A stretch of DNA of 38,666 bases from a virus (taxonomy: Duplodnaviria; Heunggongvirae; Uroviricota; Caudoviricetes): the IMG/VR virus record IMGVR_UViG_3300045988_147970; one strand, 5' to 3'. Below are positions 10,374-38,666 of this stretch, piece after piece. The position numbers and the translations under genes were made by a program. Every line of letters starts with the position of its first letter. The first letter of the stretch is position 1. Below the pieces are notes generated by a model. It was not told the DNA's origin, ran no database searches, and worked only from the letters and a program-made list of their open reading frames with translations.

Positions 10374-11753
10374 CTACTTAATCAACGGCCGGAAAGCCGC
10401 CAGCACATCATCAGATCGTCCGATTGTTGAACCACCAGGCAACGGCAACTCAAACTCAAAACGAACAGCTTTCTCCAGACTCGCCCAACTAAGGGAATCA
10501 TCGTTAATGACGTGCAAATACCAGCTCTTACAGTTGAATATTGACCGCTTAATCCTGAAACCATGTACACGACACAACTGCTTCACTTCCTCATCAGAGT
10601 GAAACTTCTGGTAAAACCAGTGCCCCTTCCGGTACAACGCGGTAAAACCGTCATGATCAATAAAATAAAGCCGGCTTTTGGAACTCGCCGCTTGTGTTTG
10701 CTTCAGGACTGTTTCCAGTTCTCCACGGCTACGGCCAGAAAAGAATATTGACCCACCAGCTTTACACAGGCCTTTCAGAACCGTCAGAACGGACCATTCA
10801 GCCTCGACACTATCGACCGAGTTCAAAACGCTATCGCAAATCACGTAGTCGTAACGCCCTCGCGTTTTTAAGTCGTCCACCAGCGTATCAATCATCCGGT
10901 TTGTTGCGGCCCTATCCAGAGTGTTTCCAGCGCCCTTACGGCGGAAAAGCTCGAGATCATGCAGGTTATATCCCTTTGCCCTGAGCATTCGCGCGTAGTC
11001 TCCCTGCCCCGAACCAAAATCAATTCCTCTTGGCGTCTTGGCAATGATCGGGAGGATCAACGACTCATACAGATTTGATTTCAGGCTGCCACCATTACGC
11101 AACCGCATAAGCTGCGCATACGTCTGGATGTATGTTGTTTTCTCCAGATGAGAATACTCAAATACACCATAAGTTTTATTCAGATAACTTTGGTATTTTT
11201 CCTTCTCAACATCAGGGATCACAAACACCGTTAGCGGTGTGCGCGTCATTTTCGCTGCTAATGCATACTGAGCACAGTGAATAACCTCACCAGACTGAGT
11301 AGCAACACAACCACCCCACGGACCATACTTGATAACCAGTTCCGCTATGTTCTTTCGAACATATGCCATTTTCGCGCGCATATTGCCTGAGATCTGGCTT
11401 GCCGATACCTGAACAAAACCATGCTTATCTTCCAGACCGGACACCCTGCAACGCTCATCTCCGCTATCAAAATCCGTTCCGTTATGCAGTTGGTTAAACC
11501 GTACTTCGTCGTATACCGTCGTTTCACAGGGCAACACATACACCGCAGCACGCGTTATTCCCAACTTACGTAGCGCCTTCGTCCTTTGGTGTCCCGCCAC
11601 CAGCAAATCGCCGCGCACTATCAATGGCTTCACAAGCCCCAGCTCCCTGACGCTTTCCGCCAGCCTCGCAAGATCATCCTCACCGATAAAACGCGGGTTA
11701 TATTCCGCGCCGCGTAGGTGCGTTATGTCGTAATTGAGGTGAAGCATCAGCAC
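10374..11753 (-). CDS. ParB-like N-terminal domain fused to a class I SAM-dependent methyltransferase domain
   Basis: N-terminus has a ParB box (LLVAGHQRTKALRKLG); C-terminal half has SAM-MTase motif I (IDFGSGQGDYARML), an acidic motif II (YDYVICDSV) and GGSIFFSG; 459 aa. Confidence 0.65.
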   Translation of the reverse strand: MLMLHLNYDITHLRGAEYNPRFIGEDDLARLAESVRELGLVKPLIVRGDLLVAGHQRTKALRKLGITRAAVYVLPCETTVYDEVRFNQLHNGTDFDSGDERCRVSGLEDKHGFVQVSASQISGNMRAKMAYVRKNIAELVIKYGPWGGCVATQSGEVIHCAQYALAAKMTRTPLTVFVIPDVEKEKYQSYLNKTYGVFEYSHLEKTTYIQTYAQLMRLRNGGSLKSNLYESLILPIIAKTPRGIDFGSGQGDYARMLRAKGYNLHDLELFRRKGAGNTLDRAATNRMIDTLVDDLKTRGRYDYVICDSVLNSVDSVEAEWSVLTVLKGLCKAGGSIFFSGRSRGELETVLKQTQAASSKSRLYFIDHDGFTALYRKGHWFYQKFHSDEEVKQLCRVHGFRIKRSIFNCKSWYLHVINDDSLSWASLEKAVRFEFELPLPGGSTIGRSDDVLAAFRPLIK

Positions 11754-12370
11754 ACCTCCCCAGCCAGCAATGCGGATACAAATCCGATATAGCTGCCATT
11801 ATCATCAACATAACGAGACACCGCGCAGTCAAAACGATCCGCTTCCTCATCCGTTGCCGGGATTTTATGACCTCCAAATGACAGGTACTGAACTTTTACG
11901 CCTGATTTGGCCTCATCCTTCTCAAATGGGATATCCATACCCTCTGTGTCATCGTAGACCGCCGCACTCAATAAGTTATCCAGTTCGCGCTGAGTAAAAC
12001 CAATTGAGTCCAGAGCAAAATCATCGGCCGCAAGATCTGCAAGCTCCGCGCTTAACAACTCTTCATCCCAACCAGCATTCAGCGGAATACGGTTGTCGGC
12101 CAGACGATATGCCTTCTTCTGATTCTCCGTTAGCCCAGCCAGAACAATGCAGGGAACATCATCCATCCCCAACTGAGTGGCCGCAGCAATTCGACCATGA
12201 CCAGCAATTACAACGTTGTTCTCGTCTATCAGGATCGGATTAGTCCATCCGTACTCCTGTATGCTGGCAACAATCTGATCTACCTGCTCCACGGAGTGTG
12301 TGCGAGCGTTCTTTTCATAACCAATCAACACAGAAAGTGGTAAAGAAACCACATTAAGATGTTTTGTCAT
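11747..12370 (-). CDS. ParB-like nuclease domain protein (paralog of 8490..9080)
   Basis: 207 aa; ParB box (VIAGHGRIAAA); similar along its length to the 196-aa ParB-like protein, including the C-terminal KIPATDEE region. Confidence 0.7.
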   Translation of the reverse strand: MTKHLNVVSLPLSVLIGYEKNARTHSVEQVDQIVASIQEYGWTNPILIDENNVVIAGHGRIAAATQLGMDDVPCIVLAGLTENQKKAYRLADNRIPLNAGWDEELLSAELADLAADDFALDSIGFTQRELDNLLSAAVYDDTEGMDIPFEKDEAKSGVKVQYLSFGGHKIPATDEEADRFDCAVSRYVDDNGSYIGFVSALLAGEVC

Positions 12371-13777: not shown

Positions 13778-13978
13778 TTAATGCTCGCGTCGTCCGGCGA
13801 CAACTTCGGATTTGTATTTCAGGTCGCCCAGCAAGAATTGCAGTTTAAGCATCTTTGCCGCCGTGTAGTTTCCTGATTCCACAACCTCTTTCATGAGGTC
13901 ATAAACGGCCGCAACATCATCAGCCAGGAACTCTTTGCGTTGCTGCTCAGTCGCACGTTTGAAGGAAATACGCATCAC
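13778..13978 (-). CDS. hypothetical protein
   Basis: 66-aa ORF; its start overlaps the upstream stop. Confidence 0.3.
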   Translation of the reverse strand: MMRISFKRATEQQRKEFLADDVAAVYDLMKEVVESGNYTAAKMLKLQFLLGDLKYKSEVVAGRREH

Positions 13979-14244
13979 TCATCATCTCCTGCCGCACATA
14001 CAACCTCACAAAAAACATCAGCGGAATGTTTCTTTTTGAATGAATGGCGCTCAAAACCGCACTCAATATCAGGCGCAAAAACATCCACCACATACGGTCT
14101 TTCAGAATGTTTGTTTTCCCAACGATAAACCGTAGTGACGTTGAAATGTTTTAACGCTTCACGGTACTCAACGCTGCCCGTCAGGTTTTTTGAGGTCAGG
14201 TATTGCAGGAGGTTTTTTACTACTTCACGGTCTTGTACTTTCAT
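13975..14244 (-). CDS. hypothetical protein, first gene after a duplicated operator-bearing promoter module
   Basis: 89-aa ORF; GGAG RBS; preceded by the ~104-bp module that is duplicated upstream of the DUF3560-like gene. Confidence 0.35.
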   Translation of the reverse strand: MKVQDREVVKNLLQYLTSKNLTGSVEYREALKHFNVTTVYRWENKHSERPYVVDVFAPDIECGFERHSFKKKHSADVFCEVVCAAGDDE

Positions 14245-14251
14245 CGGGTTA

Positions 14252-14355
14252 TCTCCGGTTTAACCAGGGCGGGTATCGCTCGGTTTCGGGTATAATCATA
14301 GGAAATTTTTTCCCACCTGCAAAGCACTTTTTATATAAATATATAATTATATAAT
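14252..14355. repeat. ~104-bp duplicated promoter-leader module, copy A (copy B at 21832..21935)
   Basis: ~93% identical to 21832..21935; each copy sits directly upstream of a minus-strand gene start and carries the AGGAAA-N3-TTTCC operator-like motif and AT-rich TATATAA repeats. Confidence 0.6.
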
Positions 14356-14356
14356 T

Positions 14357-14944
14357 CTATGCCACTTGCCAGAGAGCATCATGCAACTGGATACCTCCAT
14401 TGCACTGGTTGCCCCAGCCATGCCAACCATCAGGTAAATCACCGCGAGCAAACAGCTCAATACGAGGAACATCACCTAACAGCCTTACCAGCTTGTCACG
14501 AACCACATCAGGCTTCCGAGAATGCTCCAGACGAGGCGATGTAAACGACTGAATGATCCCCGCATCAAGGCGGGTCGGCAATTTGCCTTTTACCGCAAAC
14601 AAGCAATCTTCACTGTTTGCACGAGTCATATGCCCCATCCCCATCACCAGCTTATCTGGTTGTCGGCTACCACATTTGTTCCATGTGAAGCCCTTCATGG
14701 TCATAAGCCTGAATCCCCATGCTTTCACCACCAGCAACGCTTCTTCTGGCTGAGTCGGAACCCACCACATGGCCAACAAACACGATTCAGGATTAGCAAG
14801 CTGCCAGACAGGAATACGAGCAATATCCTCAGCTTTCATCGTTGGATACTTAAAACCAGCTCCACGATTCCCATCCTTACACTTATCTTTGTATTCCCAG
14901 GGGGGATCTGCATAAATCAGATTAAACAATGCAATTGCCTCCAT
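14357..14944 (-). CDS. N6-adenine DNA methyltransferase, MT-A70 family
   Basis: N-terminal IYADPPWEY (DPPW catalytic motif) is the MT-A70 signature; 195 aa. Confidence 0.8.
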   Translation of the reverse strand: MEAIALFNLIYADPPWEYKDKCKDGNRGAGFKYPTMKAEDIARIPVWQLANPESCLLAMWWVPTQPEEALLVVKAWGFRLMTMKGFTWNKCGSRQPDKLVMGMGHMTRANSEDCLFAVKGKLPTRLDAGIIQSFTSPRLEHSRKPDVVRDKLVRLLGDVPRIELFARGDLPDGWHGWGNQCNGGIQLHDALWQVA

Positions 14945-15043: not shown

Positions 15044-15252
15044 TTGCCTGTTGTGTGCCGGATATCGCCCGACAACGCTGTTTTGGTAACACGGCTACAG
15101 TTCCGTGCCGCTCCAGCTTTTACCCCTTTGCGGATAACAGGCCCTGCCTGTAACTTAGCCCCACGTTCGCCCGAAATGCGCACCAGGCACGCATAAAGAT
15201 GAGCACGAAGGAAGTAACTCCACCGCGCTTATCTTTATGTGTGAGAGTGAAT

Positions 15253-15328
15253 TGGTGGCCCCTACCGGATTTGAACCGATGACCGTGCGATTATGAGTCG
15301 CCTGCTCTAACCACTGAGCTAAGGGGCC
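15253..15328 (-). tRNA. tRNA with anticodon CAU, ileX-like (tRNA-Ile2 or Met); 3-prime CCA encoded
   Basis: Reverse complement GGCCCCTTAGCTCAGTGGTTAGAGCAGGCGACTCATAATCGCACGGTCATCGGTTCAAATCCGGTAGGGGCCACCA folds as a cloverleaf; the first ~42 nt match my recollection of E. coli ileX. Confidence 0.85.
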
Positions 15329-15497
15329 ATATTTGATCTGTTTGTCTGGTGTGGCGCCGCGCACGAAAATCCCAGCCAATAAATTCAGGATTTTTGGGCG
15401 CGGCGGCATATCAGACAAACATGGTTGATGCGTGCGCCCATGAGAAAAGCGCATAGAATGTTGTAACTATATATTTATATAATTATAGAAATATATA

Positions 15498-15707
15498 TTA
15501 CTTTCGGCAGTTGATTTCCCATGCCCTGTTATGAGCCAGAATATCTTTCTTTGTCTGGCGGTCCATAACATCGATGTCGTGATCAGTCAGGTAGATGGGC
15601 TTTACCCAATCACAGGCGGTATCAACCACCACCGGGACGCTTCCACGACTCCCGCAGCTCGCGATCAACATCGTCATCAGCCATATGGTTAACACTCTGC
15701 TGTACAT
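15498..15707 (-). CDS. o-spanin (Rz1-like outer-membrane lipoprotein)
   Basis: 69 aa with lipobox LIASC; reading frame overlaps the 3-prime end of the i-spanin gene. Confidence 0.55.
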   Translation of the reverse strand: MYSRVLTIWLMTMLIASCGSRGSVPVVVDTACDWVKPIYLTDHDIDVMDRQTKKDILAHNRAWEINCRK

Positions 15708-20036: not shown

Positions 20037-20402
20037 TCACTTCAACTCCTCCCGACGACGTTCCTGAAGCTCTAGCATTGCGGCTCGGAAATCCTGCCAC
20101 CATTCCTCATCTGCAACGGGGGTGTTTCGCTCCAGCACCTTGTCCGCATCAGCGATCAGGTTTGCCAGACTCTTGTCTGAAATCTTCGTTACCGGAGTCG
20201 TTGGTTGCTCAACCTGCCCGATAGGTTTTATCGTGCTCAAAAGGAGGCGACGGCTGGAAAGTGGCGACCCACAACGGCGCCCATCTTCCTTGCGATATGT
20301 TTCTTTCGGACCAACACACCAGGTTGTCGGCGTTTCGCGTAACTTCACTTTTTTCTCACCATCAATGGTGATGATTATTCCGGTATGGGTTTTGATGCTC
20401 AT
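20037..20402 (-). CDS. hypothetical protein
   Basis: 121-aa ORF in the operon. Confidence 0.3.
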   Translation of the reverse strand: MSIKTHTGIIITIDGEKKVKLRETPTTWCVGPKETYRKEDGRRCGSPLSSRRLLLSTIKPIGQVEQPTTPVTKISDKSLANLIADADKVLERNTPVADEEWWQDFRAAMLELQERRREELK

Positions 20403-20680
20403 GCCACAGCCCCTCTCAACGGCTTAACTTTGGCTAATAAGGTGTTAAACAACATGGAGTTAGGATTCATGCCAAATGGCAATTCCGGTTTAGCGGAGTA
20501 GTACAGGCAACCATTTATTTTCCTGGTTGTTATCTGTCCTTCGGCAACCATGCTTCTCAGTCTGCAACGCATAGAGTTCTGCGACACACCAATGTGCTCC
20601 GCGATTACGTCCACTTTTGAACATGGGTGATCGGTCAGGAAATTAATCACATCTTGGGGGTTAATAATTTTGCGTTTCAT
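20399..20680 (-). CDS. small putative winged-helix DNA-binding protein
   Basis: 93 aa; VDVIAEHIGVSQNSMRCRLRSMVAEGQI resembles a wHTH recognition region; AT-rich promoter-like sequence upstream. Confidence 0.3.
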   Translation of the reverse strand: MKRKIINPQDVINFLTDHPCSKVDVIAEHIGVSQNSMRCRLRSMVAEGQITTRKINGCLYYSAKPELPFGMNPNSMLFNTLLAKVKPLRGAVA

Positions 20681-20757
20681 TGTCGAGGCGTCCTTATAAA
20701 TTTATATAAATATATAATTCTATATAAGGCGGGAGACATCCCGCCGTAGGCTTACTG

Positions 20758-21825
20758 TCAGGCTTTCAATAGCGATTCTTTCAGATATCGGGCATCAGCC
20801 AGGGCGTTTGGAGTAATCTTGCGAACCCATGCATTACGGGTTGGACTCCACTTAAAGGCGCGTGATTTAAGCAGCGAACGAATGTTTGCCTCTGGTTTGC
20901 CTGGGAAATAAAACAGGATGCGGTTATCCTCTGGATCTATCTCCATAGAAAAGCCGTCGTATTCTTCGCGCTGTGCTCCTGTTACAGACTTGACCGATTC
21001 AAGCTCCTTAATACGGCTCTGTAGTCGTTTGATTTCGGCGTTATTGTTGCTCAGTGCGTATGAAGGGAATCCGATGTGCCCACAGAAATCTCCGGCCAGT
21101 AACTCTTTGGCTTCGCTTTCTGTAAACCTGAGATCGATTAATGCAGAAAGCTGCTGTAATTGGTCTTTTTTGTATTTGCGAATGGCCTTATTTGCGGCCT
21201 TCATTTTGACGTGTGACTTCATGCAGCCTTGCAGCTTACGAAGCAACTTAAATAGCGCATCAGGATCATCAGACGAAATTCCATTACGACCAACACCTGC
21301 GGCTTTGCTCTCGTAGTGTGATGCTTTACTTTCGCATTCAACAAACGCTTTTCTTAATAACGCATCAGCTTTAGACAAACGGCGGCGATGGCCTTTCGCG
21401 CTATAATGGTCAACTAAAATCGGCTGGCCTAACGGGATCACATCCAACAGGTCATGCGCTCGCTTATGCGCTACCGCACCTTCTTTTCTGGCTTTTTCTG
21501 CACGAGCAATATATCGGGCAAGACGCGCGTTCTGGCGTTCCTGATAGGTGTTTACGTAATCATCTCCGCGCTGCTGCTGTTCAAGCCATGCTTTGCGCAG
21601 ATCTTCTGTTACGTCCACCAGCTCCGCAGGGATACAACCAGTTTGGGCTTCATAAGAGTAACCATCCTCATAGATACGCCCATCATCTTCAACAAAGAAA
21701 AAGGTTTCGTGCTCATCGCTTTTGACCATACGACCATTAACATGGCGTAATAGGTAGCCAGTATCAGTGCTTAACAAGCTGTTAGGGTTGTTGATCCAGT
21801 CAGAAATAATTACTTGTTTATTCAT
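20758..21825 (-). CDS. DUF3560-like protein with N-terminal extension
   Basis: Start at MNKQVII (residue 51 of the track ORF) with GGAG RBS; motifs GQPILVDHYSAKGHRRR, SSDDPDALFKL, KAANKAI, DFCGHIGFPSYALSNNNAEIKR, FKWS match my recollection of DUF3560. Confidence 0.5.
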   Translation of the reverse strand: MNKQVIISDWINNPNSLLSTDTGYLLRHVNGRMVKSDEHETFFFVEDDGRIYEDGYSYEAQTGCIPAELVDVTEDLRKAWLEQQQRGDDYVNTYQERQNARLARYIARAEKARKEGAVAHKRAHDLLDVIPLGQPILVDHYSAKGHRRRLSKADALLRKAFVECESKASHYESKAAGVGRNGISSDDPDALFKLLRKLQGCMKSHVKMKAANKAIRKYKKDQLQQLSALIDLRFTESEAKELLAGDFCGHIGFPSYALSNNNAEIKRLQSRIKELESVKSVTGAQREEYDGFSMEIDPEDNRILFYFPGKPEANIRSLLKSRAFKWSPTRNAWVRKITPNALADARYLKESLLKA

Positions 21826-21831
21826 CAGATT

Positions 21832-21935
21832 TCTCCGGTTTAACCAGGGCGGGTATCGCTCGGTTTCGGGTATAACCTTAGGAAATTTTTTCCCACCCGT
21901 AAAGCACTTTTTATATAAATCTATAATTATATAAA
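21832..21935. repeat. ~104-bp duplicated promoter-leader module, copy B
   Basis: See copy A; upstream of the DUF3560-like gene start at 21825. Confidence 0.6.
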
Positions 21936-22018
21936 TAATAGTGACTGGTGCTTTTTTAGGCTGCACATTAAACATTTTTGTTTAGCTTATTGGCAAGGTC
22001 TTGAAAAAGACATTTCAG

Positions 22019-22034
22019 CAATGGTATACCATTG
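22019..22034. promoter_or_regulatory. 16-bp perfect palindrome CAATGGTATACCATTG, operator-like
   Basis: Lies ~60 bp upstream of the plus-strand regulator start in the divergent intergenic region; overlaps a -35-like TTGAAC. Confidence 0.5.
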
Positions 22035-22091
22035 AACATGGTATCGGCTGAATTTTACAATTAACACATTTTAAACAATTGGAGGTGCCAA

Positions 22092-22376
22092 ATGGCTAAA
22101 CCAAAATCTGAAATTGATGCTATTCGAGCATTAACAGAAGTAACAATTAAAGGTTTTGAGCAGGTTGCTCAGGCATTAGTTGATATGAGAGAAGCTCAGG
22201 GAAAAGTCGCACGAGCAACATATAATGGATTAACCTCCTCAGGAAAATCTCGCTATGTTGCATCGCTAGTAGAGGAAGTAGGATCACAAGCTGAAGTAAG
22301 CCGCATGTTAAATATCACACCTGGGCGCGTTAGCCAGCTTATGAAGTCCGAAAAAAACCGCAAAAATGGTAAGTAA
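22092..22376 (+). CDS. putative DNA-binding regulator; the only convincing plus-strand gene
   Basis: 94 aa; GGAGGTG RBS 5 nt upstream; C-terminal HTH-like SQAEVSRMLNITPGRVSQLMK; 16-bp perfect palindrome in its promoter region. Confidence 0.45.
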   Translation: MAKPKSEIDAIRALTEVTIKGFEQVAQALVDMREAQGKVARATYNGLTSSGKSRYVASLVEEVGSQAEVSRMLNITPGRVSQLMKSEKNRKNGK

Positions 22377-22409: not shown

Positions 22410-22709
22410 TTAGACATGGAACGCTACTCGCTTTCCTGTAGGAAGCTCAACATCCAGGCTTAATTTGCCTCCCATAGCTTCAACGTAACGCTTTAATGTC
22501 GCCAGCTTTAAATCATTTCCGCGCTGCTCCAGCTTTGTTACTGCTGGCTGGCTTATACCCATCGCCTCAGCAACCTGTTTTTGTGATAACTGGAGTTCTT
22601 CACGCATCATCTGCAAGCCGACCTCAAGAATCATCTCATCTGCCATTTCTTTAATTCGCGCCTGGCTTTCAGGTGAACGGCTGGCAATCACCTCATCTAA
22701 TGTTCTCAT
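22410..22709 (-). CDS. HTH XRE-family antitoxin (HigA-like)
   Basis: 99 aa; HTH QKQVAEAMGISQPAVTKLEQ; start overlaps the toxin stop by 1 nt (ATGA). Confidence 0.65.
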   Translation of the reverse strand: MRTLDEVIASRSPESQARIKEMADEMILEVGLQMMREELQLSQKQVAEAMGISQPAVTKLEQRGNDLKLATLKRYVEAMGGKLSLDVELPTGKRVAFHV

Positions 22710-23056
22710 TACTTGCTCTCCAGTGTGTTCAGATGTGCTGCAAACTCATCCTCAGCTATACGCACCAGTTTTTTATAAAACCGCTTATCGTTACTTTTGT
22801 CTCCTGCACAAAGAACGATGGCCCGACGAATCGGATCGAACGCATAAAAGGCTCTTATCGGACGGCCAGAAAACTGAACGCGAAGCTCTTTCATATTTTT
22901 GTACCGAGAACCTTTTACGGTATCGGCATATGGCCTGGGTAACTCAGGTCCGTAAACCTGTAGATTTTTCAAATCAGCCAAAACCTTTTCCTGAAGAGCC
23001 TCTTCTTGCTCATTTAGCCAGTCGTCAAATCGCTGGCTAAAAAGTACCGTCCACAT
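22709..23056 (-). CDS. RelE/HigB-superfamily toxin, phage Gp49-like
   Basis: Start at MWTV with AGGA RBS; ADTVKGSRYKNMKELRV...AFYAFDPIRRAIVLCAGDK...KRFYKKLVRIAEDEF matches the Gp49-like toxin pattern. Confidence 0.65.
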   Translation of the reverse strand: MWTVLFSQRFDDWLNEQEEALQEKVLADLKNLQVYGPELPRPYADTVKGSRYKNMKELRVQFSGRPIRAFYAFDPIRRAIVLCAGDKSNDKRFYKKLVRIAEDEFAAHLNTLESK

Positions 23057-23300
23057 GCTCAATCCTATAACCTGTAGTTTATACCACTGACTATATAACC
23101 CGTAGGTTATAATTTCAAGAAAAACGGGGCTATTTAACATAATGGACGTTATCGGCACCACCGGATCACCGTTCATTGTCGGATCTAAAAAATCCGCTCA
23201 AAAGATCATGTTTTCCTGGGCGTTTTCCACCGTTTTTTATGTTGCTTATTTGTTAATGAAATCTCGTTTTCAGTTTCGCCTCATTTTCGACGCGAAAGCC

Positions 23301-24518: not shown

Positions 24519-25367
24519 TTAATGTTGGAGTGATTTCCAGGTCTTTCTTAACCTGTTATAACGCTGCTCAACGAGGGATCGTAAATATGCAAGGTCAGCA
24601 CCAGGATACATGCCATCAGCAAATTCCTGACTAACCTCTCTGGTGATTTGATGACGAAGTTCGGCCTCTCCCTTTTCCCGAACAAGACGCGCAGCTCTCT
24701 CCGCTGCTTTCTGTTTTGCCTTTATCTCTCTGGCCGTCTTCCTCTGACGCCATACATTCTCCATCTGCTCCTGAATAACAATACGCTTATAATCAGCCTC
24801 CGTTATCGCTTTTTTAAGCCGTTCGCTATTCTTCGCATTGAAGTAATTAAGTTTCTGGCTAACCGCACGTCTCCATGCTTGTTCAGTAATACCAACGGTT
24901 TCCAGCAGTTGATCACGAATCTCTATTTTCGCTGGCCAATACTGTTTATTCACCCGATCCCAGCGACGTTCATAATCAATAAAACCTAACGCTTTCAGTT
25001 GCGACAACGCCCTTGTACAGCGCGTTATAGACTTGTTCCCAGCTTCGGATACGGTAGACAGGCCGCAAAAATCAGCCAACGCCTCAGCACTAGCCAGAAC
25101 CCGCTTAGAAATGATGTTTACATGGTGCAAAATCGCAGCGATCACAGCATTAATCGCCCGACGACGATGCTCGTTTATCCGGCGCTTCCGCTCTGACGGT
25201 TGATTAACGTAGAACGCAACCTCACACGTAAGATCACGCCCATTAATGCGCTGTAAAGCATCAGATAACACCAGCGGCAGCTTGTGCGTATGGTGCTTTG
25301 GAGGCTGGAACTCCGGCGACAAATTACAAACGTAAGCTGAACGTAGAGACGGCATTGGTCTATCCAT
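24519..25367 (-). CDS. repA: replication initiator RepA, IncFII RepA1 family
   Basis: AINAVIAAILHHVNIISKRVLASAEALADFCGLSTVSEAGNKSITRCTRALSQLKALGFIDYE aligns with my recollection of R100 RepA1. Start set at MDRP; the track ORF extends 44 codons further upstream in frame. Confidence 0.8.
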   Translation of the reverse strand: MDRPMPSLRSAYVCNLSPEFQPPKHHTHKLPLVLSDALQRINGRDLTCEVAFYVNQPSERKRRINEHRRRAINAVIAAILHHVNIISKRVLASAEALADFCGLSTVSEAGNKSITRCTRALSQLKALGFIDYERRWDRVNKQYWPAKIEIRDQLLETVGITEQAWRRAVSQKLNYFNAKNSERLKKAITEADYKRIVIQEQMENVWRQRKTAREIKAKQKAAERAARLVREKGEAELRHQITREVSQEFADGMYPGADLAYLRSLVEQRYNRLRKTWKSLQH

Positions 25368-25382
25368 ATGTTCGCTCTTGCG

Positions 25383-25495
25383 TCCACGGAAAACCAACGT
25401 ATAATGGGAGTTGTCGAGGCGCCCATGGATTGTTGTTGTTGGTTTTCCGTGGATGTCGCAAGAAGCCCGCAGATTTATCTGCGGGCTTTTTGTTT
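25383..25495 (+). ncRNA. candidate CopA-like antisense RNA opposite the repA leader
   Basis: 16-bp perfect inverted repeat (25383..25398 with 25438..25453) followed by hairpin AGCCCGCAGA-TTTA-TCTGCGGGCT and a T-run on the plus strand; boundaries inferred. Confidence 0.4.
25464..25495 (+). terminator. rho-independent terminator on the plus strand, antisense to the repA leader
   Basis: Perfect 10-bp stem with 4-nt loop followed by TTTTTGTTT. Confidence 0.55.
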
Positions 25496-25862
25496 CCATA
25501 TCTGGTCACTTTCCAACCAGACACCCACAATCATAACCACGTTACGTGGTTTTAAGAGAACTCTACCACAACACTTTCGGTCATGCACGAAGTCTCTCAC
25601 TGATCGAACGATAATCCACCAGTAAAAGGATCTAAATTGGATCTCGTTTTGCGAGCATCATACTACTGGCCTAACTCCAGTCAATGATTCCCAGCCAGAA
25701 ACCTGCGGTAAACTCATCGTTCAGCAATATGCTGTCCGGCTTCAAAGATAAGGTGACATCATCCCTTAACAGCGCGGCCAGCTCCGTTAAAGGGTTGTTT
25801 TGACTTAATGCAAAACCGCTAATAAACATATTGGCGGTTTTGTTCCTTAAATCATCTTGCCT

Positions 25863-33373: not shown

Positions 33374-33581
33374 TATTGCGTCTCCACGGAGGAAAATTGT
33401 TTACTGATATTGGCATAACCGGAGCATCAGGAACTTTAAGAATAATTCCCGCAGAAAAAAGCACCGTAAAGCGGTGCTCAGTATTAGCATCAATAAGAAG
33501 ATAAGACAGGTACTCATTACCATACAACTTTAAAGCGATACTATCCCATGAGTCCCCTTGAACCGTTCTATAATCATCCAA
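33363..33581 (-). CDS. tail protein X-like (LysM-like, P2 gpX family)
   Basis: 72 aa; QGDSWDSIALKLYGNE...KVPDAPV parallels P2 gpX QGDTLDAICVRYYG...VELPDVQ. Confidence 0.7.
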   Translation of the reverse strand: MDDYRTVQGDSWDSIALKLYGNEYLSYLLIDANTEHRFTVLFSAGIILKVPDAPVMPISVNNFPPWRRNSVT

Positions 33582-36366
33582 AACTTAATCTCCGTTGTTG
33601 GAACATATGAGCACTCAATTTCTTCTCAAAATCAGAATATCCCGCATCTAATGCTCTTTTAGCTGCCGCCTCAGTTTCCTTTGGTGAACCAGCCGGAAGA
33701 TTGATTACAGGTGAATAGGTTATTCCACCAGTCACAGCGTTAACGTTCTGGCGAGGTCCAGAAGTCCCAGCGGCAGATATCCCGTGAGGTGATAAATTTG
33801 ATTGCCCGAACTTGCTTGCTATTGCATTCTGTAAGCTGTTATTCCTGCTAACACCTGATGCCAGAGTAGTCATTATTGCACCACCTGACTTTGTTAGCTG
33901 TGAGAATGGACCTTTTTTCGCGTCAGAGAACGGTAAATACTCACGTACAGAAGAAAAAACGCCTTTCACTTCATTAATTAAAGCATTTGCTTTTGATTTT
34001 ATCCCAGTGATTAACGTCTCAATTATTTTTGCGCCTGACTCACTCCAGTTTATTCCAGATAAATAAGTCGTTACAGATTGGAATGCTCTTATAAAGAGTC
34101 CAACTGGTGAAAAACGCATAAAAACAGATACCAGTGTATCTATGATTTTCTTTCCTGTTTCGCTCCAGTTAATGCCAGAAAGGTAATTTGTTGTAATTTT
34201 AAATGCTTTAATTAAGAACGGAAGCGGAGACATCCATTTAAAAGCACTAATTAATGTACTGTAAATTCTTACTCCTGCCGAACTCCAGTTTATGTTGGAA
34301 AGATAATCCCATGCTTTACCAAACATAGATATAATCCATCCATTGAGGTCAAAGTTTAAGATAAAGTTTTTTATAGCCTCAAATGATTTAACTGTATATT
34401 CCTTAACAGAAGGCCAAACTCTGACAGCATAATCTCTGATCTTATCCCAATTCTGATAGAGCAATATTCCTGCGGCAACCAGCGCAGATATAGCCATCTG
34501 AATCCACCCGAAGGGTGTTAGCTTTGTCGCTACAGATAAAGCCAGCATAGCTACCCTACACGCTATAACCACACTTTTCATGGTTAGAAACGCACCTGCC
34601 GCCATCACTATCTGAGACACAAAATTGGGGTTGTTAGCTACAAATTCACTAATTTTTGTAATCAGCGGAACCAAAACACTAAGCGCGGCATTCAAAGCAG
34701 GTTGCAAGGCCTGACCAAAACTTAATGATGCATTGCTAGCCTGAATACGTAATTGTTTCAATCGCTCCGCATTATCTTTCGTTATGTTGGCAAAATCGCG
34801 GTCAATAACAGCACTTCCAGCTCCAAGAGATGTTGCTTTGATTCTCTGGTATTCCTTCCAGTTTTGAATCATCGGACGAACAAAGTTCTGAACCTGCATA
34901 TCGCCAAATAGTTCACCAAGTAACTTCTGATCTCCGTTCTTAGTCATTTTCATGACAGAATGCATTGCAGCTTCGAATGGATTCTTCCCTTTTTTCTGCG
35001 CTGTTGTAACAATTTTATATAAATCTACACCGAAATTTTTCTTTGCTTTTTTTAGTGTTTCAGGGGAAAGTATTTTTGCCAAAAAGTTGTTCATATTATT
35101 AGCAGCCTCATCCGAAGTTGCAGCCCCCTTGCGAGCTATCTGCAAAGCTGCACCCATCGTCGCGGCTGCTTCTTTACCTCCCATTTTTAATGCCTGGAAC
35201 TGAGCACCAAGCACAGGAAGATTTTTGGCCATATCTTTAAATTCAAAGTTCCCCTCTTTCCCTGCCTGAACCAGAATCCCCATTGCAGACTTCATTTGAG
35301 ATGGATCAATCTTCAATGAGTCACTTAATGTAAATGATGCTTTCGAGACATCGAGGATATCAGAGCCAGTAGCTGTAGCTGTTCGCCCAATAGTTAGTAG
35401 ATTCGCCTGAGCCTCTTTATAATCCTGCCCAGCAGCGACGAGAAAACCCTGAGCGGCCTGAATATCAGATGCAAACTGGTTGGTAGCCGTTCCGGTAACA
35501 AGCATCGCCTGCCCCATCGCCTGAACTTCTTCCGGCTTCATATCTGCCGTAAGACCAATCATTTTGTTTTCACGATTGAAATTTGCTGCATTGTTAGCAG
35601 CAGCAAATGCACCAGCCGCTACAGCACCAGTTTGTAATCCTGACCTTACAAGTTGACTCTTTGCCTCACCAAGATGCTCTCGCTTCAATTCACGCTGCCT
35701 TTCCAACGCGCGGTTTAACTCCTCCTGAGCACGTTTTACTGCAAGAACATTTTTCCGTGCTTCAGCCAACGCATTTTTATAGCTGTTAATTTTATCAATA
35801 CGTTGTTTTTCTAATGCCCGGTTAAGTTCCTCCTGCTGTTTTTTCACTTGCTGAACATTTGCTCTGGCTAAAGCCAAAGCCGTTCTGTAGCGGTTAACCT
35901 GCTCAACGCTACGGGCCTGAGCCTCACGATTACGATCAATGCTGGCTTTAAGCTCTTTCTCTCTTGAGGCCAAAGCTCTGGCAGATGTATCAGCTCCCTG
36001 ATAGGCAGACTTTAAAGCGGCCAGTTCTTCACGCTGAGAACGTAGTGATGCTCGTAAATTTGATGAATGTGTTTTTGCCTTCTCAAAGTCACGAAGCATC
36101 GCTCTGGTTGGATTGGCCGTGTTTTTTATTTGCTTCTGTAACTCTTCAACGCGAGCGGCAGCTTTATGATATTCGAGGGCAGTCTGTCCAACCTTTACTT
36201 TTACAGATTGTAGCTTTTGAATTTCCCCATGTTCTTTCGTTAACCCAGCAAGCTCTGCATTTAATTTAGCAACAGCCTGATTAGCTGTAGTAAAACTTTT
36301 GGGGAGAGAGGCGGCAACTTTGCCGCCAATTTCAAAAGCCAGCTTAAAGTTCTTATTGCTGGCCAT
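33574..36366 (-). CDS. tail tape measure protein
   Basis: 930 aa, extensive coiled-coil N-terminal half, downstream of the frameshifted chaperone pair. Confidence 0.85.
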   Translation of the reverse strand: MASNKNFKLAFEIGGKVAASLPKSFTTANQAVAKLNAELAGLTKEHGEIQKLQSVKVKVGQTALEYHKAAARVEELQKQIKNTANPTRAMLRDFEKAKTHSSNLRASLRSQREELAALKSAYQGADTSARALASREKELKASIDRNREAQARSVEQVNRYRTALALARANVQQVKKQQEELNRALEKQRIDKINSYKNALAEARKNVLAVKRAQEELNRALERQRELKREHLGEAKSQLVRSGLQTGAVAAGAFAAANNAANFNRENKMIGLTADMKPEEVQAMGQAMLVTGTATNQFASDIQAAQGFLVAAGQDYKEAQANLLTIGRTATATGSDILDVSKASFTLSDSLKIDPSQMKSAMGILVQAGKEGNFEFKDMAKNLPVLGAQFQALKMGGKEAAATMGAALQIARKGAATSDEAANNMNNFLAKILSPETLKKAKKNFGVDLYKIVTTAQKKGKNPFEAAMHSVMKMTKNGDQKLLGELFGDMQVQNFVRPMIQNWKEYQRIKATSLGAGSAVIDRDFANITKDNAERLKQLRIQASNASLSFGQALQPALNAALSVLVPLITKISEFVANNPNFVSQIVMAAGAFLTMKSVVIACRVAMLALSVATKLTPFGWIQMAISALVAAGILLYQNWDKIRDYAVRVWPSVKEYTVKSFEAIKNFILNFDLNGWIISMFGKAWDYLSNINWSSAGVRIYSTLISAFKWMSPLPFLIKAFKITTNYLSGINWSETGKKIIDTLVSVFMRFSPVGLFIRAFQSVTTYLSGINWSESGAKIIETLITGIKSKANALINEVKGVFSSVREYLPFSDAKKGPFSQLTKSGGAIMTTLASGVSRNNSLQNAIASKFGQSNLSPHGISAAGTSGPRQNVNAVTGGITYSPVINLPAGSPKETEAAAKRALDAGYSDFEKKLSAHMFQQRRLSFG

Positions 36367-37349: not shown

Positions 37350-38666
37350 TTATTCAGAAAACAAGTTCAGCAGATAATCAGGATTATATTCCATGACGAA
37401 CTCTATATCTCTGGCAGGTGAGAATGGTGTCATTTTTACATGGAATTTAACAATCCCGTCCATCAATGACGTAATCGTGTTTTCAGACTGATCAAAGGTA
37501 ACAACACCACCTGCAATATCCTGATTACCAGTGAGGCCGTTAAGCCAAATATTCGCACTAGTAACAATCGATTCAATTAATCGACGGTTTGCAGGATTGT
37601 CTATTTTTGACCAATGCGAAAGAATTAACGTATTACCCACCCAGTTAAACATACGTCGGCAAACACGAAATGCGTCTTTGGGGTCTGTAGATGTTGGATA
37701 AATAGCATTACGGTTTCCCCATGATTTCCAACCATCAAAATTAAGGCTTGTTACAATCCCCTGTCCATTTAAGTAGTTTGCCTGGCTAATGTTAAGCCAT
37801 ACCTCACTGCCATCTTTACGTACAGCACCGTCCATCTGTAGTTTTATATTTGACGGAGAACGTGATGGAATATCATCATACTGACTATCCAGCAAGCATG
37901 TTGCTGCAGCTAAATGGGTTGAGTGATGGTAAATATTGTCACCAAGTTTCACCATCGGCCAGCACACTGTCTGGTTAGCTGCCATATGATTATTGTTCTG
38001 CTTCCATTCAGGAACAGCAGAATAATCACTGATAGTAGATTTATCAGTCGGCGCATCGGTGATAGCTTCTGCTTTGAACAATTCACTAATCAGCGCAGCT
38101 TTAGCCGCCATTAGCTGGCCAACTTCACTATCAGAACTAAATCCAGGCGCAATCACTTGTCCAGGAACCAACTTGAAGCGGGGATACACATCAGACAGTA
38201 ACTCAAGCCCTGTATTGGCTTTAGTGTTGGAATCCACACCACCGATAATGTCATTTTTAGTTACGGCACCGGGATCAAGATGCGTATAACTAACCTTAAG
38301 AGTAGCGTCTTTTTCGGTAATTTTTCCTCCGCTAATAGCGGTAATGACCGTATAGCCATTATCATCCAGCGCCAGCACATAATCGGTGTCAACCGTTAAT
38401 CCTGCCGAATCACCATCTGCTTTTTTCACAACAACAGATTTATATAAGACACCATCGTTAGAGAGCGTACCTTTCCCGCCAGAAAGTTTTACTACCTCAT
38501 CAGGTACGTCTTTCTTATGCTTTGCTGGATCAAGCACATTAATAAATACAACTGGCGCAACACCATATATTCCAAATGCGACTTTAATTACTTCGCTTAA
38601 AGTATATTTCTCGAAGTTTGTGCTATATCCTATTTTAGATACGGCCTCTGCGTATGTATAAGCAAT
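37350..38666 (-). CDS. tail sheath protein, 3-prime major portion (reading frame open to the window end)
   Basis: Track ORF 37350..38537 plus 43 in-frame codons to 38666; the first 18 of these are the 54-bp repeat also at 31..84, linking to the N-terminal fragment at 4..231; immediately upstream of the tube gene. Confidence 0.8.
   Translation of the reverse strand: MAYTYAEAVSKIGYSTNFEKYTLSEVIKVAFGIYGVAPVVFINVLDPAKHKKDVPDEVVKLSGGKGTLSNDGVLYKSVVVKKADGDSAGLTVDTDYVLALDDNGYTVITAISGGKITEKDATLKVSYTHLDPGAVTKNDIIGGVDSNTKANTGLELLSDVYPRFKLVPGQVIAPGFSSDSEVGQLMAAKAALISELFKAEAITDAPTDKSTISDYSAVPEWKQNNNHMAANQTVCWPMVKLGDNIYHHSTHLAAATCLLDSQYDDIPSRSPSNIKLQMDGAVRKDGSEVWLNISQANYLNGQGIVTSLNFDGWKSWGNRNAIYPTSTDPKDAFRVCRRMFNWVGNTLILSHWSKIDNPANRRLIESIVTSANIWLNGLTGNQDIAGGVVTFDQSENTITSLMDGIVKFHVKMTPFSPARDIEFVMEYNPDYLLNLFSE
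38613..38666. repeat. 54-bp exact direct repeat, copy 2 (ends exactly at the window end)
   Basis: See copy 1 at 31..84. Confidence 0.85.

Follow-up and report, generated by a model that had tools for sequence, protein, structure and literature searches.

A DUF3560-family protein with an extra acidic N-terminal domain, encoded by a myovirus-type phage-plasmid

Among the described systems closest to the gene analyzed here is the plasmid leading-region family DUF3560, or 'YdbA', which ranks as family 28 of the top 100 leading-region families, with 1913 co-oriented members lying a median of 12 genes from oriT (Samuel et al., 2024, Nature, PMC11541004, supplementary file 3). The DUF3560 gene of pO157 lies by ssb and is induced about five-fold by ciprofloxacin (PMC11125564), and Klebsiella chromosomal CRISPR spacers target a DUF3560 gene (PMC6965323). 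The antirestriction protein ArdC of plasmid pSa is likewise tied to DNA entry, and the 'polyvalent proteins' have been proposed to travel with DNA into the recipient (Iyer et al., 2017, PMC5512222), in a study whose main text does not mention DUF3560. Here we describe a DUF3560 gene on the minus strand of a 38,666-nucleotide (nt) stretch of viral DNA, the IMG/VR record IMGVR_UViG_3300045988_147970 (hereafter the window). The window encodes terminase, portal, major head, sheath, tape-measure, baseplate and tail-fibre proteins and, by similarity, RepA and a RelE/ParE-XRE pair, and the element is therefore a myovirus-type phage-plasmid. Its DUF3560 protein has three parts: an acidic N-terminal domain (N-domain, residues 1-92), a basic hairpin (93-178) with an invariant QPIL-x-H-x-S loop, and a basic C-terminal half (179-355).

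By its profile match the gene product is a bona fide DUF3560-family protein, as the original prediction had proposed from its motifs. Pfam PF12083 matches residues 94-216 at 107.2 bits (E 7.7e-31, model positions 2-124 of 124), well over the curated gathering cut-off of 27.2 bits. All four motifs quoted in that prediction are present (residues 133-149, 184-194, 246-267 and 324-327), but only the first two fall within the Pfam envelope, the last two lying outside the model in a separate C-terminal module. Across a 90-sequence DUF3560 alignment 17 positions are invariant, and the query has every one of the family-invariant residues Q134, P135, H140, S142, G182, S184, D187, P188, K193, M208, R271, R302, F307, P311, S327 and R335. 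The profile phrog_6744 (function unknown) matches the protein end to end at 776 bits; no NCBIfam family is matched by the 355-residue protein. The protein is already catalogued: the RefSeq 'DUF3560 domain-containing protein' WP_024227027.1 is the same protein, with copies at 99-100% identity in three Yersinia myophages and about 58 E. coli phage-plasmids, these about 48 kb long, and between it, or PHROG 6744, and the window protein there is no difference of substance. The finding is therefore ordinary for this window, whose gene has its annotation already and in no way differs from its database counterparts. What is added here is the bipartite anatomy of the family, the link of its C-terminal half to polyvalent proteins, and the description of the N-domain.

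The open reading frame (ORF) that encloses the gene spans 20758..21975 on the minus strand, and the annotated 355-residue product begins at the ATG at 21825. This start is fixed by two observations: the homology between two copies of a promoter/leader cassette, described below, stops at this ATG, and the RefSeq plasmid orthologues are 1068 nt long. We rejected a longer product of 405 amino acids (aa) starting at the ATG at 21975, whose 50 extra codons overlie the promoter and dyad shared with other genes, and whose start lies ahead of the MNKQ-equivalent position at which homologues begin.

A search of 5.8 billion proteins retrieved 445 relatives. In most of them, 257-283 aa long, the match begins near residue 93 of the query, reaches its C terminus and spans 69-76% of its length. 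The family unit therefore measures about 262 aa, some two times the extent of the Pfam model. The AlphaFold2 model built from the 90-sequence alignment is confident (predicted local distance difference test, pLDDT, 92.9; predicted template modelling score, pTM, 0.83) and the family unit is bipartite, a helical hairpin followed by the C-terminal half. Helices 93-128 and 141-177 form the long hairpin and are linked by the conserved loop IPLGQPILV-x-H-x-S. After the conserved loop GISSDDPDA come four further helices with the loop DFCG-x-IGF..Y.L.NNNA, and the C-terminal half, which carries GISSDDP ... NNNA ... FKWSP, ends in a small alpha/beta domain modelled at 285-354 and bearing NR..F.F.GKP and FKWSP..AWVR. 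The core is basic (isoelectric point, pI, 9.5-10), and its last domain has six conserved Arg/Lys.

The hairpin loop exists in two co-varying forms across the family, VGHHSE and VDHYSA, the query having the latter: G139D, H141Y and E143A are found jointly in 10 or more unrelated members, and H140 and S142 are constant throughout. Judged by this recurrence, VDHYSA is an alternative form and not a decayed motif. Searches of PDB by sequence and profile returned nothing better than E 0.13, and Pfam scans of N-domain and C-domain members gave no consistent family. The full-length model recurrently resembles the DNA-binding C-terminal 'double-wing' domain of T4 MotA (PDB 5jlt, 1kaf, 6k4y), a weak likeness (Foldseek E ~1.6, identity at most 9%) that is no evidence of homology or of sigma appropriation.

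The N-terminal extension of about 90 aa that the original prediction had pointed out is borne out, as about 92 residues that most homologues do not have, and structure prediction makes residues 17-85 a separate beta-plus-helix domain (AlphaFold, pLDDT ~95). Among the relatives the N-domain is confined to a small Enterobacterales set (P0001-P0026), and it occurs in only 6 of the best 80 of the at least 463 IMG/VR contigs with DUF3560. Its profile finds only 12 proteins among 1.84 billion cluster representatives: DUF3560 fusions, short stand-alone or truncated forms, three zinc-ribbon proteins and two low-scoring repeat proteins, the last of which look spurious. In the three zinc-ribbon proteins, of about 175 aa (P0123 at positions 633-1178 of L009, P0126 and P0128), the N-domain is preceded by a CxxC...CxxC zinc ribbon; the gene of the one with genomic context is immediately preceded by a PF03230 Antirestrict gene and followed by a MazE-like antitoxin gene. 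Outside this rare set we detected no fold or sequence relative of the N-domain. Its divergence outpaces that of the core, with about 42% identity in distant orthologues where the core keeps about 60%, and it is not specific to phages, since orthologues on conjugative elements carry it too. One is on a Dickeya element with ParA, KorB and KorA and an adjoining LPD29 protein, another on a Xenorhabdus element with Antirestrict/KlcA, LPD29 and TrwC, and a third in an F-like leading region of Yersiniaceae with the order SSB-ParB-PsiB-PsiA-...-DUF3560-...-SLT.

At the position of the N-domain, relatives have other domains: ArdC-N precedes the same core in some (for example P0074, 36.5 bits) and LPD30 plus LPD29 in others. 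These fusions share the ~262-aa core, at 44-52% identity to the window protein, and the N-domain is therefore probably an alternative targeting or partner-binding head. The C-terminal half also occurs apart from the hairpin. A polyvalent protein of 1306 aa from an Enterococcus faecium plasmid aligns, through its residues 1082-1253, with residues 174-349 of the window protein (177 aa, 38% identity, E 3e-24). It also has ArdA, ArdC_N, Peptidase_M78, LPD25, YodL and DUF4316 domains, and its gene adjoins those of topoisomerase III and a relaxase. When the C-terminal half served as query in a second search, the best 120 matches listed were all ordinary DUF3560 proteins. Relatives with ArdC-N, LPD29/30, ArdA and YodL are true fusions; in the window protein one catalogued domain, DUF3560, is recognised, and it looks like a 'solo' version with an uncatalogued head domain.

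Relatives that consist of the core alone adjoin a TrwB/TrwC relaxase module, SSB, a DNA methylase, a SprT-like protein, LPD30-LPD29 and KorA. In some PromA plasmids a core-only homologue lies between kleA and kfrA/ssb/korA and is annotated 'ArdC'. Both features of ArdC, the ArdC-N domain (PF08401) and the C-terminal zincin metalloprotease with HExxH, are absent from the window protein, whose 355 residues include no HExxH motif and whose Pfam matches include no peptidase family; compared by sequence, the PromA label is unsupported.

That DUF3560 is a leading-region family, as the original prediction stated, agrees with its rank as family 28 and with the N-domain-bearing orthologue of the Yersiniaceae region. 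The window protein and the leading-region DUF3560/'YdbA' proteins belong to the same Pfam family, and N-domain-bearing orthologues in canonical leading regions are 52-56% identical to it. The IncF YdbA proteins are too distant to be detected by tblastn at E 1e-5, and the leading region of the F plasmid has no annotated DUF3560 gene. By tblastn, at least 432 PLSDB plasmids carry DUF3560 (232 conjugative, 170 non-mobilizable and 30 mobilizable). The gene of the window is not itself in a leading region, because the element is a non-mobilizable phage-plasmid and no relaxase or type IV secretion system is reported for its relatives; proximity to oriT, relaxase and transfer genes is found with more distant orthologues and not in the window.

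The gene stands as its own unit between a repeated promoter/leader cassette and a downstream hairpin (Table 1). The two copies of the cassette align from an AT-rich element through the ribosome-binding site to the ATG, and the genes that share it have no informative Pfam family. The original prediction of a duplicated, operator-bearing promoter stands for the duplication and for the dyad itself; the dyad lies upstream of the likely -35, and need not be a repressor operator. Its 24-mer occurs at four sites in the window (14331-14354, 15475-15498, 20702-20725 and 21911-21934), with 0 expected from shuffles. The likely promoter is directly downstream of the 24-mer, which would place the dyad at about -43 to -66. 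This promoter scored below the threshold of a consensus scan; other copies have better hexamers at that position, namely TTTACA/TATGGT (relatives) and TTTGCA/TATGAT (second window copy). The cassette is about 90% conserved at orthologous loci of K. aerogenes and E. cloacae, where the proteins are only about 70% identical. A structured RNA leader was considered and rejected (fold z-score -0.79, no compensatory pairs across 4 sequences), and an Rfam scan of the window found only a tRNA; a likelier cause of the leader's conservation is the promoter, or a spread of the cassette in recent times.

In the 48-kb relative L001 (NZ_AP022818.1) the same dyad clusters upstream and downstream of parA (14367-14398, 14440-14463 and 15156-15179), and so the dyad may belong to a partition-linked or global regulator and not to a simple repressor. 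Its role may resemble that of KorB or omega sites, as a centromere-like element or the target of a global regulator. On the other side of the gene, the hairpin was not called by a terminator scan, as its T-run is interrupted; its sequence suggests a possible terminator, and with it a single-gene unit. Beside the second cassette, an orphan MT-A70-type DNA methyltransferase gene (14357-14944, minus strand, phrog_359) ends at the cassette, with the 89-aa gene lying downstream, and no cognate restriction enzyme was noted nearby in the general annotation of window proteins.

Table 1. Features of the DUF3560 gene and its promoter/leader cassettes, in window coordinates.
Feature	Position	Strand	Details
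DUF3560 coding sequence	20758..21825	-	355 aa + stop; ORF and translation, Pfam, PHROG, RefSeq
Ribosome-binding site GGAG	21833..21836	-	7-8 nt 5' of ATG; read from sequence
N-terminal extra domain, residues 1-92	21550..21825	-	Five short beta-strands (17-53) and helix 67-85; acidic, pI 4.3
Pfam-modelled stretch, residues 94-216	21178..21546	-	Hairpin of helices 93-128 and 141-177, loop IPLGQPILVDHYSA, GISSDDPDA, helix 190-217
C-terminal half module, residues 174-349	20779..21306	-	Only first ~35 residues within Pfam model; also separate in polyvalent protein
C-terminal basic alpha/beta domain, residues 283-355	20761..20979	-	Strand-strand-strand-helix-strand-strand-helix; NR..F.F.GKP...FKWSP..AWVR
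Promoter/leader cassette, DUF3560 copy	21832..21934	-	103 nt, 95% identical to 14252-14354
Promoter/leader cassette, second copy	14252..14354	-	Drives 89-aa hypothetical gene 13975-14244
24-bp AT-rich dyad TTATATAA-N8-TTATATAA	21911..21934	.	The 'operator' of the original prediction
Likely sigma-70 promoter	21875..21903	-	-35 TTTACG 21898-21903, 17-nt spacer, -10 TAAGGT 21875-21880; inferred from sequence
GC-rich hairpin, 7-bp stem, 4-nt loop	20728..20745	-	13 nt past stop codon; then TTATATA and next dyad

The reading that we tentatively favor, at a little under an even chance, is that the protein aids establishment without being an enzyme, by binding DNA or a partner, and that its N-terminal head is interchangeable. 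A binder is preferred to an enzyme because no enzymatic family or fold was matched in Pfam, NCBIfam, PDB and structure searches, the core is basic, and there is the MotA-like resemblance, weak as it is. The protein would be made when the DNA of the element newly enters a cell or is being de-repressed, and its basic core would bind either nucleic acid or a factor, of DNA processing or of defence, that occupies the entering DNA. Such binding would help the element to establish, by protecting its DNA or evading host attack. The N-domain would serve as the targeting or partner-binding head in place of the single-stranded-DNA-binding ArdC-N or of LPD30-LPD29, and the function would be common to the phage-plasmid and to conjugative plasmids, whose leading regions carry the gene. 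An establishment or anti-defence role of this kind, which the original prediction had suggested, is plausible by association, given the fusions to ArdC-N, ArdA and LPD domains and the antirestriction neighbors; no direct match to PADLOC models or to ArdA, ArdB or ArdC accompanies it. PF07275 (ArdA) and PF03230 (Antirestrict) gave no match at E up to 1, and appear only as neighbors or fusion partners of relatives.

Several points weigh against this reading. A phage-plasmid enters as injected double-stranded DNA, so that leading-region logic is not automatically transferable to it. The MotA likeness is weak (Foldseek E ~1.6), and its aligned residues are not reported. The invariant His140, Ser142, Ser184 and Asp187 could equally be a catalytic site. 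Instead of serving as a repressor operator, the dyad could bind an activator, or be an UP element or a site like a centromere. The DUF3560 protein and six neighbors match no PADLOC-DB model at E up to 0.01. In the literature searched on DUF3560, PF12083 and YdbA we found no functional study, nor anything relevant on this phage-plasmid group. Family 28 is without similarity to known anti-CRISPR or anti-restriction sets (PMC11541004).

That last observation also counts against the alternative that the protein inhibits host defence itself, blocking a restriction enzyme or immune effector with its acidic N-domain as a decoy or docking surface, like ArdA, Ocr or KlcA. The strongly acidic N-domain beside a basic core would suit such a role, as would the Antirestrict genes adjoining both a zinc-ribbon plus N-domain protein and an N-domain-bearing orthologue, the fusion of the C-terminal half with ArdA in one polypeptide, and the 'ArdC' label in PromA plasmids. 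We consider it unlikely, however: there is no sequence or fold likeness to ArdA, ArdB/KlcA, ArdC or Ocr, and an acidic decoy cannot be the core mechanism of the family, because most members do not have the acidic domain. Quite unlikely is an accessory role in replication or priming, in which the protein would help to convert or replicate the DNA as it comes in, perhaps through recruitment of primase, SSB or the replisome. SSB is a frequent neighbor, in PromA plasmids the gene is near repB (a putative primase) and ssb, and phrog_19458, labelled 'primase', matches residues 173-351 only (E 1.8e-36), at profile positions 122-299. But positions 1-121 of that profile are unmatched, and the label thus plausibly comes from a fused N-terminal part absent here; Pfam and NCBIfam recognise no Toprim, archaeo-eukaryotic primase, DnaG or zinc-binding primase domain, and the phage-plasmid relatives possess their own RepA.

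In a further alternative, the MotA-like C-terminal domain would bind specific double-stranded DNA and redirect transcription early after entry. We hold this to be very doubtful, as the likeness is not significant in Foldseek, the carrier elements are very diverse with no known shared promoter motifs, and a sequence-specific regulator would hardly be expected at the end of a huge polyvalent protein that is delivered with DNA, where this module also occurs. The least probable of these alternatives is an enzyme of an unrecognised class whose active site is formed by invariant His, Ser and Asp of the conserved loops. H140, S142, S184 and D187 are indeed invariant, and the UniProt-derived names given by Samuel et al. 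for family 28 (IncF homologue YdbA) include 'Hydrolase' and 'Predicted HD superfamily hydrolase'. Yet neither HD nor any other hydrolase family is matched in Pfam or NCBIfam, the top structural matches include no hydrolase, the sequence has no HExxH, and long helical hairpins dominate the fold. The residues flanking H140 and S142 switch as a set, GHHSE or DHYSA, which suggests that they are structural rather than catalytic.

The element that carries the gene has close relatives. The stretch 20300-21933 is 99% identical to the Yersinia pestis myophages vB_YpM_39, vB_YpM_41 and vB_YpM_44 and to 62 plasmids, nearly all from Escherichia (61/62), typed as non-mobilizable (59/62) and mostly about 48 kb long. 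These 48-kb relatives carry three copies of the promoter/leader cassette and the window two. Upstream of the dyad, the window matches the distal cassette copy of the relatives and not their DUF3560 copy (window 21832-21934 compared with L001 10546-10635 and 19433-19522), and the sequence past the window dyad, with a helix-turn-helix (HTH) gene, the toxin-antitoxin pair and RepA, sits about 8.9 kb away in the relatives. A segment of about 8.9 kb is thus missing from the window between cassette copies, with the junction inside the cassette upstream of the DUF3560 gene; it holds a Ref nuclease, DUF1064, a cI-like HTH protein, ParA, a small ParB-like gene and ORF6N. The copy number, the distal-copy flank and the shift together point to a deletion between cassette copies or to an assembly collapse. 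If it is a real recombinational deletion, candidate repressor and partition genes have been lost from the window.

Other features of the window were recorded alongside. Past the cassette, a divergent gene (22092-22376, plus strand) encodes a 94-aa HTH protein (phrog_15590) and has a good sigma-70 match at 22032-22061; the RelE/ParE-type toxin with its XRE antitoxin follows at 22410-23176 (minus strand), then the RepA replication initiator at 24519-25499 (minus strand). A tRNA-Met gene (anticodon CAT, 15253-15328, minus strand) lies a short way downstream of the dyad at 15475-15498, with the lysis genes on one side and the MT-A70 methyltransferase gene on the other, and the annotation of Yersinia phage vB_YpM_41 has the same tRNA-Met. 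Between the packaging and accessory genes, 10374-12370 (minus strand) encodes two adjacent proteins with ParB/Srx-like N-terminal domains, of 459 aa (phrog_5475) and 207 aa (phrog_620), which are of the nuclease- or methylase-associated ParB type and not partition proteins. The tape-measure gene (33574-36366) contains a 42-nt unit three times at 34025-34306, with 120-nt spacing and 71% identity, probably a 40-aa protein repeat. An exact direct repeat of 54 nt occurs at 31-84 and 38613-38666; the 30 nt preceding each copy differ, and the repeat is not a plain circular overlap. It could reflect circular permutation, terminal redundancy or an assembly junction.

A bolder proposition, which we regard as somewhat unlikely, is that the ~262-aa core is an unrecognised and widespread effector of DNA protection or anti-defence, carried by conjugative plasmids, phage-plasmids and phages both solo and as a terminal module of polyvalent proteins, that the acidic N-domain is a new partner-binding head replacing ArdC-N, and that the dyad ties expression to a partition-coupled global regulator like KorB or omega. 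DUF3560 is among the largest uncharacterised families of plasmid leading regions, and the phage-plasmid copy is a tractable one: one gene under a promoter of its own, with close relatives in E. coli ATCC 25922 and in isolated Yersinia phages. Simple assays of deletion and infection could therefore test what the family does. Its bipartite anatomy, taken with the fusion partners (ArdC-N, ArdA and LPD29/30), narrows the hypotheses to functions in DNA entry.

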